DNA of 40,572 nucleotides, taken from Escherichia coli. Lineage in GTDB: Bacteria > Pseudomonadota > Gammaproteobacteria > Enterobacterales > Enterobacteriaceae. The stretch is taken from the NCBI RefSeq assembly GCF_003334355.1, contig NZ_QOWP01000032.1. One strand, given 5' to 3'. The position numbers and the translations under genes are program-made. Below, one piece after another: positions 3,661 through 4,778 of this stretch; position 1 is the first letter of the stretch, and each line of letters begins with the position of its first letter. The notes beneath the pieces were generated by a model. It was not told where the DNA came from. It did no database searches and saw only the letters and a program-made list of their open reading frames with translations.

Positions 3661-4778
3661 ATGATATTTGATATGGTAAAAATTCTACATGTACACCTGA
3701 GTGGTGACATTAGTGGCGCTCAACGAGTTTCACTGGATGAGATGCAAACTCTTAGTCAGGAATTTCAACAATCGATGGTTTGTTCAAAGGAGGGAAGATT
3801 AACTGAGCAGGCTCGCCGTTTTGGAGTGCGTACTCATATAATTTCATCTTTGACAAGAGAAATTTCAATACTTAAAGATTTTGTGTCTTTTTTCCAATTA
3901 TATAAACTAATCAAAAAAGAAAAATTTGATATTGTCCATACTCATTCATCTAAAACAGGGTTTTTGGGGCGTGTTGCAGCAAAATTAGCGGGGGCGAAAA
4001 AAATAGTGCATACTGTTCACGGATTCGCATTTCCCTCAACGCAAAATAAAATTATTAAGTCTATATATTTTTTGATGGAACTGATAGCTTCTTATTGTTC
4101 CAGCATTATTATAGTTATGAATGAGAGTGATGAAAAAATTGCAAGAGAATTTCTTCTCAAAAATAAGAAAACAAAATTATTTTTAATTAACAATGCAATA
4201 GATGTCGATAAATACAATAAAGACAAAGACAAAGACAAAGACAAAGACAAAGACAAAGTTTTTTTTAGAATAGTTATGGTTGGACGGCTATGTGAGCAAA
4301 AAATCCATTGCTATTAATTGAGGCTGTAAAAGATTTGGAGTCCAATATTCAAGTAGATATTATTGGAGATGGCCCACTTAAGGTAAAATTGTTAGAAAAA
4401 ATAAATCAATATAATCTTGCTGATAAAGTTAATTTTTTGGGTTGGATAGATGCTGTAGAAGAATATTTATATCAGTATGATCTTTTTGTTTTGCCATCTA
4501 GATGGGAAGGAATGCCTTTAGCAATGTTAGAGGCAATGGCAGCAAAAGTTCCAGTGTTATCCTCAGATATCGAAGCAAATAAATATCTTATTGAAAAAAC
4601 TGCCGGTGTTCTTTTTGAGGACAATAACTGTGAGGATTTGAAGCATAAAATTAAAGATCTATACTCAAATGTACAGTATAGGGATAATATTGCATCTAAA
4701 GCGTACCAGTCTCTAATAAAAGATTTTAATCTGGTAAAACGGACTAAAATATTAGAGTCTTTATATTTAAACAACTAA
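3661..4778 (+). pseudogene. GT4-family glycosyltransferase (first O-antigen gene, wbdH-like), split by a -1 frameshift in an A6 tract at 4298-4303
   Basis: ORFs 3661..4317 and 4308..4778 together form one GT-B protein with N-terminal and C-terminal (EWEGMPLAMLEAMAAKVPVL) domains; one extra A would restore ...CEQKNPLLLIEAVKDL.... Start may be 3661 or 3673. Confidence 0.6.
4219..4254 (+). repeat. Perfect tandem hexanucleotide repeat (AAAGAC)x6, in frame, encoding (KD)6 in the glycosyltransferase
   Basis: Read directly: aaagac repeated six times, followed by a partial aaag. Confidence 0.9.

Follow-up and report, generated by a model that had tools for sequence, protein, structure and literature searches.

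A polymorphic in-frame hexanucleotide repeat in the first glycosyltransferase gene of an Escherichia coli O-antigen cluster

We analyzed a stretch of 40,572 nucleotides (nt) from Escherichia coli (contig NZ_QOWP01000032.1 of RefSeq assembly GCF_003334355.1), which we call the window. The first gene of its O-antigen cluster encodes a glycosyltransferase of family GT4 with the GT-B fold, and the coding sequence of this gene contains a perfect hexanucleotide repeat. The gene, the array, and the features next to the array are listed here, with positions counted from the first nucleotide of the window:

3673-4778, plus strand: GT4/GT-B O-antigen glycosyltransferase gene, the orthologue of the first glycosyltransferase of the O55 cluster; a 1-bp deletion disrupts it.
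4189-4218, plus strand: left flank of the array, AACAATGCAATAGATGTCGATAAATACAAT, the same in the O-type of the window and in O55; short-read contigs end 1-3 nt before the array.
4219-4258, plus strand: hexanucleotide variable-number tandem repeat (VNTR), (AAAGAC)6 + AAAG, coding for (KD)6K; a perfect repeat that is polymorphic among related alleles.
4259-4266, plus strand: T8 tract that adjoins the array on its 3' side and is read as the codons V F F; constant in 9 of 9 alleles of the window's O-type.
4298-4303, plus strand: A6 tract, one base short of the A7 of intact alleles; the resulting -1 frameshift cuts the product to 214/218 amino acids.
4308-4778, plus strand: out-of-frame remainder of the gene; it encodes the greater part of the C-terminal Rossmann domain, and the E-x7-E motif is in this part.

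The array consists of six exact AAAGAC units (4219-4254) and then a partial unit, AAAG (4255-4258). Tandem Repeats Finder (TRF) assigned it a period of 6, 6.7 copies, 100% matches, and a score of 80, which was the top score in the window. Its perfect period-6 run is 40 nt long, whereas 200 shuffles gave 17 nt at most and the other periodic runs of the 40.6-kb window do not go beyond 19 nt; a chance origin is excluded. Position 4219 is a codon start within the open reading frame (ORF) at 3661-4317 (offset 558 = 186 x 3), AAA GAC encodes K D, and the product reads ...NNAIDVDKYN(KD)6KVFFRIVMVGRL.... The letters of the window, the TRF result, and the codon offset thus all confirm what a first-pass annotation had described as six in-frame copies of AAAGAC coding for (KD)6. 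The start of the gene was placed by the Prokaryotic Genome Annotation Pipeline (PGAP) at 3673 (MVKIL), and the first in-frame ATG is at 3661. A minus-strand ORF at 4092-4256, which would encode (SL)n, was rejected as a gene; it is a by-product of the repeat. TRF also reported an imperfect 9-bp duplication (ATAAATACA / ATAAAGACA) at 4208-4226, which overlaps the left edge of the array and within which contigs break. This duplication might be a trace of the origin of the first unit.

Using megablast, we compared the gene to 5,426 complete E. coli genomes. It was present in 25 of them, and the units were counted in all 25. Eight of these genomes carry the same cluster as the window (98-99.9% identity), and the other 17 carry an O55-type orthologue (83-85% nucleotide identity), which is the first glycosyltransferase of the O55 cluster (wbgM-type); these include the O55:H7 strains CB9615, RM12579, and DEC5A-E. 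Within the window's cluster, there are 17 copies in PSS-12, 12 in both EA13 and PEC414, 9 in each of GPEC1352, GPEC1354, and GPEC1356, 8 in both E5 and APEC E956, and 6 in the window. The O55-type unit is AAAGAT, with copy numbers of 8, 8, 7, 7, 6 (five genomes), 5 (eight genomes), 4 (three), and 3 (one). The 26 sequenced alleles (the 25 complete genomes and the window) therefore range from 3 to 17 copies, and all of the arrays are perfect. Further alleles come from public protein clusters: KD x4 and x5 in the window type and KD x2 to x5 in O55. The 5-copy O55 allele occurs on 87 contigs. A scan of metagenomes found just two loci: one contig had 6 copies and another ended inside the array.

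Overall, copy numbers of 4, 5, 6, 8, 9, 12, and 17 are found in the O-type of the window and of 2-8 in the O55 orthologue, for a total span of 2-17. The first-pass annotation had proposed this comparison across isolates, with identical copy numbers everywhere as the outcome that would argue against slippage; instead, the numbers differ widely. It had also proposed that a 6-bp unit keeps the frame, so that changes in copy number would vary the length of a linker without switching the gene off. This agrees with the alleles, which differ by whole units only and whose arrays are always perfect. The reading frame is broken in just two alleles, at the A tract in both cases and never at the repeat, and except for these two variants, the genes are annotated as intact. 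An exact-sequence look-up returned no match for the truncated product of the window or for intact alleles with 3, 6, 7, 10, 11, or 13 copies, but the 12- and 17-copy alleles that are known from RefSeq were likewise absent, so these absences carry no information. The left flank with the first unit had no match among representative genomes of other species in a scan of contigs.

The array is the fastest-changing feature in the lineage of the window. In the flanks of the array, with 590 nt on the left and 540 nt on the right (1,130 nt), there are no single-nucleotide polymorphisms (SNPs) among the window and seven of its eight same-cluster relatives, and this set carries 6, 8, 9, 9, 9, 12, 12, and 17 copies, or five different numbers. 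Since the gene sequence on either side of the array does not vary within the O-type, the array changes much faster than point substitutions accumulate. On a larger scale, EA13, PSS-12, E5, and GPEC1352 each differ from the window by 3-6 SNPs across 16-17 kb, and each has a different copy number from the window; the array and one A in the A tract are the only indels. Between alleles, whole units of difference in the array outnumber SNPs.

The 30-nt left flank is identical in the O-type of the window and in O55, and the arrays start at the same codon. The units are pure within each lineage: all of them end in GAC in the window's O-type and all of them end in GAT in O55. On the simplest reading of these sequences, the common ancestor of both O-types already had a KD array, which was then homogenized independently in each by repeated contraction and expansion; separate homogenization would indicate continuing turnover. 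In 18 homologues at 40-62% identity, the same segment is not conserved, is not repetitive, and differs in length. The nearest other homologue in E. coli, which occupies the same position between galF and gmd in an O128ac strain, lacks the repeat. As a negative control, the match span of the O128ac homologue was constant (951 bp) in 5 of the 5 genomes listed.

Intact relatives of the array-bearing glycosyltransferase have 364-390 amino acids. We number residues by the 8-copy allele, in which the KD stretch is at 183-199. The intact protein has two Rossmann-like domains with the N- and C-terminal signatures of retaining GT4/GT-B enzymes: Pfam matches are Glyco_transf_4 (PF13439) at 14-179 (3e-16) and Glycos_transf_1 (PF00534) at 191-350 (6e-37). 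It also has the E-x7-E motif (E283 and E291), which is invariant in the alignment of homologues and lies downstream of the frameshift in the window. The best solved relative is WbnH, the GalNAc (N-acetylgalactosamine) transferase of O86 (4xyw; phmmer E = 7e-23), and the KD stretch aligns to an 11-residue gap in WbnH, just before the first strand of the C-terminal domain (VLFVGRL). An AlphaFold2 model had a mean predicted local distance difference test (pLDDT) of 89.9 and a predicted TM score (pTM) of 0.87, and Foldseek aligned it to HepE, PglA, BshA, MshA, PimA, and WaaG with TM scores of about 0.8. The pLDDT of the model falls below 50 only in the KD stretch (residues 185-198), between a helix (178-181) and a strand (202-207). 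Thus, the Pfam boundaries, the gap in WbnH, and the model agree with the first-pass placement of the repeat near the junction of the two GT-B domains, and the KD stretch is predicted to be a disordered interdomain loop. Between ...DVDKY and ...IVMVGRL, the loop has roughly 8 to 40 residues across the observed alleles.

We think it likely that the array is an in-frame VNTR that changes by slippage, that the interdomain loop around it tolerates different lengths, and that its variation is near neutral. Whole units are observed to be gained or lost; we infer that perfect 6-bp units misalign during replication. Because the unit is two codons, each slippage event would add or remove one Lys-Asp dipeptide. 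The dipeptides would lie within a solvent-exposed, disordered loop that joins the N-terminal Rossmann domain, which would bind the acceptor, to the first beta-strand of the C-terminal domain, which would bind the nucleotide sugar. Since the loop is not conserved and varies in length among homologues, lengths of about 8 to 40 residues would be tolerated, and the alleles would persist as a near-neutral polymorphism. The array would be older than the split between the window's O-type and O55, with separate homogenization in each lineage, and the change from A7 to A6 would be a separate and ordinary loss-of-function mutation.

Several points weigh against this explanation. The whole case for neutrality comes from two observations: alleles of many lengths persist in intact genes, and the loop is not conserved. 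The maintenance of a pure KD array over about 15% nucleotide divergence could reflect selection for the repeat. Some copy numbers could be under-counted in the assemblies, as the array is troublesome for short-read assemblers. Sequence alone does not distinguish slippage from unequal recombination. Finally, some alleles are shared within sublineages (9 copies in three GPEC isolates, 12 in EA13 and PEC414, and 4 in three O55:H7 strains), so change is not so fast as to be random for each isolate. By analogy, these shared alleles would fit a high but non-chaotic rate, like that of the VNTRs of E. coli O157: in those with units of 6-7 bp, mutations add or remove whole units at rates of 4e-5 to 2e-3 per generation, and the rates are low and roughly constant up to about 13 units (PMC3777172).

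Alternatively, the repeat might be adaptive, although we regard this as unlikely. The length of the charged KD loop would modulate domain closure, association with the membrane or with a partner, or the level of the enzyme, and changes in copy number would heritably and reversibly tune the quantity or structure of the O antigen, akin to the ruler in FutA and FutB of Helicobacter pylori. Catalysis by GT-B enzymes requires movement between the domains, and the repeat is at the crossover from the N-terminal to the C-terminal domain. The array was also kept, and kept pure, in two O-antigen lineages whose DNA has diverged by about 15%, and there is a precedent for a glycosyltransferase of lipopolysaccharide (LPS) that has both an in-frame repeat that changes the product and a homopolymeric on/off tract (PMC2583950). 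However, the AlphaFold2 model shows a disordered excursion instead of a structured spacer or a coiled coil, and homologues work with unrelated, non-repetitive sequences of varied length at this site. Furthermore, the genes with 2 to 17 copies are all otherwise intact, and no length is obviously preferred; the mode of 5 copies in O55 may be due to clonal sampling of O55:H7. It seems quite improbable that, in O55 and related colitose clusters, the (KD)n loop serves the first committed O-unit glycosyltransferase as a heritable and reversible rheostat. If it were, length variants would differ in interdomain dynamics or in association with the membrane or a partner, and hence in the amount of O antigen or the distribution of chains. 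E. coli O55, including O55:H7 as the ancestor lineage of O157:H7, would then have graded surface variation, comparable to the fucosyltransferase ruler of H. pylori.

The frameshift raises another possibility. In the window, the ORF at 3661-4317 stops 14 nt past the A6 tract, and the truncated product comprises the N-terminal domain and the KD loop; the remaining part of the protein is encoded in another frame (ORF 4308-4778). The A6 tract starts 44 nt after position 4254, which matches the distance of about 45 bp given by the first-pass annotation. The hexamer together with the T8 and A7 tracts could form a two-part contingency locus, that is, a phase-variable O-antigen switch that was caught OFF in the window, but we consider this very unlikely. 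Switching of LPS glycosyltransferases by homopolymers is well known in Haemophilus, Neisseria, Campylobacter, and Helicobacter; the C tract of the fut genes is an example (PMC2583950). In favor of a switch, the difference between A6 and A7 is the sole indel outside of the VNTR in the 16-17 kb shared with four relatives, and a second allele, from APEC E956, has A9 and was flagged as frameshifted by PGAP. However, the tract is A7 in 23 of the 25 alleles from complete genomes (the window is not among the 25), so it does not vary often among close relatives; A7 is far shorter than typical phase-variable tracts; and the hexamer, with two codons per unit, cannot alter the frame; alleles with 2-17 copies are all in frame. 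The E956 gene (322-1459 of the fetched region) contains four more indels, including +A, +T, and +AGC relative to all of the sister alleles, which are typical of assembly error, so we rejected it as a second independent frameshift at the A tract. The flag from PGAP most likely stems from the quality of the assembly.

Two other intact O-antigen glycosyltransferase genes in the window (13716-14633 and 14630-15754) contain an A9 tract (14477-14485) and an A10 tract (15067-15076), respectively. The lengths of both tracts are identical in the window, EA13, PSS-12, E5, and GPEC1352, which argues that such homopolymers are not hypermutable here. More broadly, the 16.8 kb that is shared with EA13 includes 26 homopolymers of at least 7 nt, all of which are identical. 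The A6 deletion is therefore not general homopolymer noise, and because it is the only indel besides the VNTR relative to four sister strains, it is probably a genuine and isolated null mutation. The strain is possibly rough. Judging from the invariant A9 and A10 tracts and the prevalence of A7, there is no sign that the A tract is a hypermutable switch, and the closeness of the array to the frameshift appears to be coincidental.

The array is a systematic break point for short-read assemblies. Many members of the protein clusters are annotated as "partial" and end in ...DVDKY(N), and the corresponding contigs stop 1-3 nt short of the array, in ...GATAAATAC(AA). Contigs end at the left edge of the array in at least 28 draft assemblies, of which at least 23 are O55-type and at least 5 are window-type; this explains the frequent annotation of the first O55-cluster glycosyltransferase as partial. 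In OU349844.1 (2428917-2430259), a "complete" O55-type chromosome of 5.4 Mb, there is a run of N exactly at the repeat and an unrelated GntR-family gene after the gap, which suggests a scaffold join or a misassembly at the array. That the differences in copy number are themselves assembly or consensus errors in a low-complexity, AT-rich region is extremely unlikely: despite these breaks and at least one error-prone related assembly (E956), the differences are always exact multiples of 6 with perfect units, the flanks are free of errors, the same values recur in independent assemblies of related isolates (9/9/9 in GPEC isolates, 12/12 in EA13 and PEC414, from China and Korea, and 5 in eight O55 genomes), and the protein alleles with 2-5 copies were drawn from assemblies of separate origin (NCBI, ENA, and Logan), with the 5-copy O55 allele on 87 contigs.

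The array-bearing gene is the first gene after galF and is followed by gmd:

2380-3291, plus strand: galF, the upstream boundary of the O-antigen cluster.
4798-5916, plus strand: gmd, the first gene of the GDP-sugar (colitose-type) pathway, directly downstream of the glycosyltransferase.

After gmd, the order is GDP-mannose mannosyl hydrolase (gmm), manC, manB, an Fcl-like reductase, an RfbH/ColD-like pyridoxal phosphate (PLP) enzyme, wzx, a putative wzy, a GT2 glycosyltransferase, another glycosyltransferase, and then gnd. Based on the gene families, this appears to be a colitose-type O-antigen cluster. No O-type-specific NCBIfam model matched Wzx or the putative Wzy of the window (11419-13762), so the serogroup is unnamed. 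The gene order suggested O111 as a candidate, but there was no match to an O111 genome, even in the distant mode of the search. The cluster looks like that of an unnamed colitose-containing O-type, as far as its genes indicate. It is found in only 8 of the 5,426 complete genomes, with pigs, poultry, and humans as the hosts. Upstream of galF is a gene of the short-chain dehydrogenase/reductase (SDR) family, which is annotated in O55:H7 as the epimerase (gnu-like) that acts at the 4 position of N-acetylglucosamine (GlcNAc) on undecaprenyl pyrophosphate (Und-PP), or Und-PP-GlcNAc 4-epimerase. According to a review of O antigens, this gene marks GalNAc as the initiating sugar (PMC7685785). Given the gnu-like gene and the structure of the O55 antigen, the array-bearing enzyme is predicted to transfer the second sugar, with an alpha linkage, onto Und-PP-GalNAc.

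At its start (1-1016), the window contains the final ~60 nt of an IS1 transposase gene and then a wcaM gene that is truncated at its 5' end (ORF 147-1016). All of the sister strains share an IS1-associated deletion from wcaD to wcaM as well as pseudogenes of wza, wzc, and wcaC, so the window and the sister strains belong to one lineage; by its gene content, the colanic acid cluster is dead across this entire lineage. In E. coli E5, an IS5-like element, ISKpn26 (21805-22785 of the fetched region), lies between wzx and the start of the putative wzy, whose annotation is shortened. This insertion is likely another event that inactivated the O antigen. With the degraded colanic acid cluster and the ISKpn26 insertion in E5, a recurrent feature of the lineage seems to be the loss of functions for surface polysaccharides. 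The second-longest simple repeat in the window is a perfect tetranucleotide run, (GCCA)4.5 at 25430-25447, within a gene on the minus strand (ORF 24961-26031) in the region of the his operon; changes in its number of units would shift the frame.

The array is mechanistically unsurprising unless a phenotype is linked to it, but it is real, strongly polymorphic, and found in a well-studied pathogen lineage. It is a highly discriminating marker within the cluster, both for O55 and for the untyped colitose O-type of pigs, poultry, and humans. The assembly breaks can affect in silico serotyping and the calling of genes in pangenomes. A GT-B enzyme that tolerates roughly 8-40 residues at the interdomain crossover may be useful for engineering. 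If the length of the loop did affect activity, this would be a rare case of graded, rather than ON/OFF, variation of a surface glycan in the Enterobacteriaceae.

Among known systems, the array protein shares the GT4 family and GT-B fold of WbnH and of other enzymes that act on Und-PP-linked acceptors (PglA, WlaC, BshA, MshA, PimA, and WaaG), but these relatives lack a repeat at the interdomain crossover. Slippage-prone repeats are found in other glycosyltransferase genes for surface glycans, such as the tetranucleotides of lic2A and lgtC in Haemophilus and the poly-G tracts of lgt in Neisseria and of Campylobacter. The units of those repeats are not multiples of three, and they switch translation ON or OFF. 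In contrast, the 6-bp unit of the array varies only the length of the protein. The array is not a phase-variable contingency locus of this type, because changes in its unit number cannot shift the frame.

The array gene resembles FutA and FutB of H. pylori (alpha-1,3/4-fucosyltransferases) in that they too are O-antigen glycosyltransferases of LPS with an in-frame tandem repeat; the number of copies of their heptad (21 bp) also varies widely (2-17 were reported), and the same gene carries a homopolymer (PMC2583950). The Fut repeats have 7-residue units in a C-terminal dimerization or stem domain and have been shown to act as a ruler for the size of the glycosylated O chains. The array, in contrast, has a dipeptide unit in a predicted disordered interdomain loop, and the homopolymer of its gene is just A7 and mostly invariant. 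A Fut-type ruler has a repeat that forms a structured spacer (heptad/coiled-coil) or a dimerization domain. The array does not qualify as one, because the KD stretch is predicted to be disordered (pLDDT is below 50 at residues 185-198) and is between the catalytic domains instead of in a terminal stem.

The closest likeness is to the VNTRs, both coding and intergenic, that are used for multilocus VNTR analysis (MLVA) of E. coli. Eight of the nine MLVA loci of O157 have units of 6-7 bp (PMC3777172). Since hexanucleotide VNTRs are thus an established class in E. coli, the array is uncommon, in line with the first-pass description of perfect coding microsatellites in this species, but not exceptional. 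Unlike the MLVA loci, it is inside an O-antigen glycosyltransferase gene and is specific to O55 and the untyped colitose cluster. The array is not among the MLVA loci named in the literature covered, and a description of it was not found in the searchable literature, although it may have been mentioned in the original paper on the O55:H7 cluster. Like the array, the MLVA loci have perfect 6-bp units that change by whole units and differ between near-identical strains, and they mutate far faster than substitutions accumulate (PMC3777172), as the array does by comparison of its alleles. The array has head-to-tail copies of a short unit, as found by TRF and by comparison to shuffled sequence, and its copy number varies between strains (2-17) while its flanks are conserved (no SNPs in 1,130 nt). 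Formally, it is a coding VNTR of the E. coli MLVA kind.
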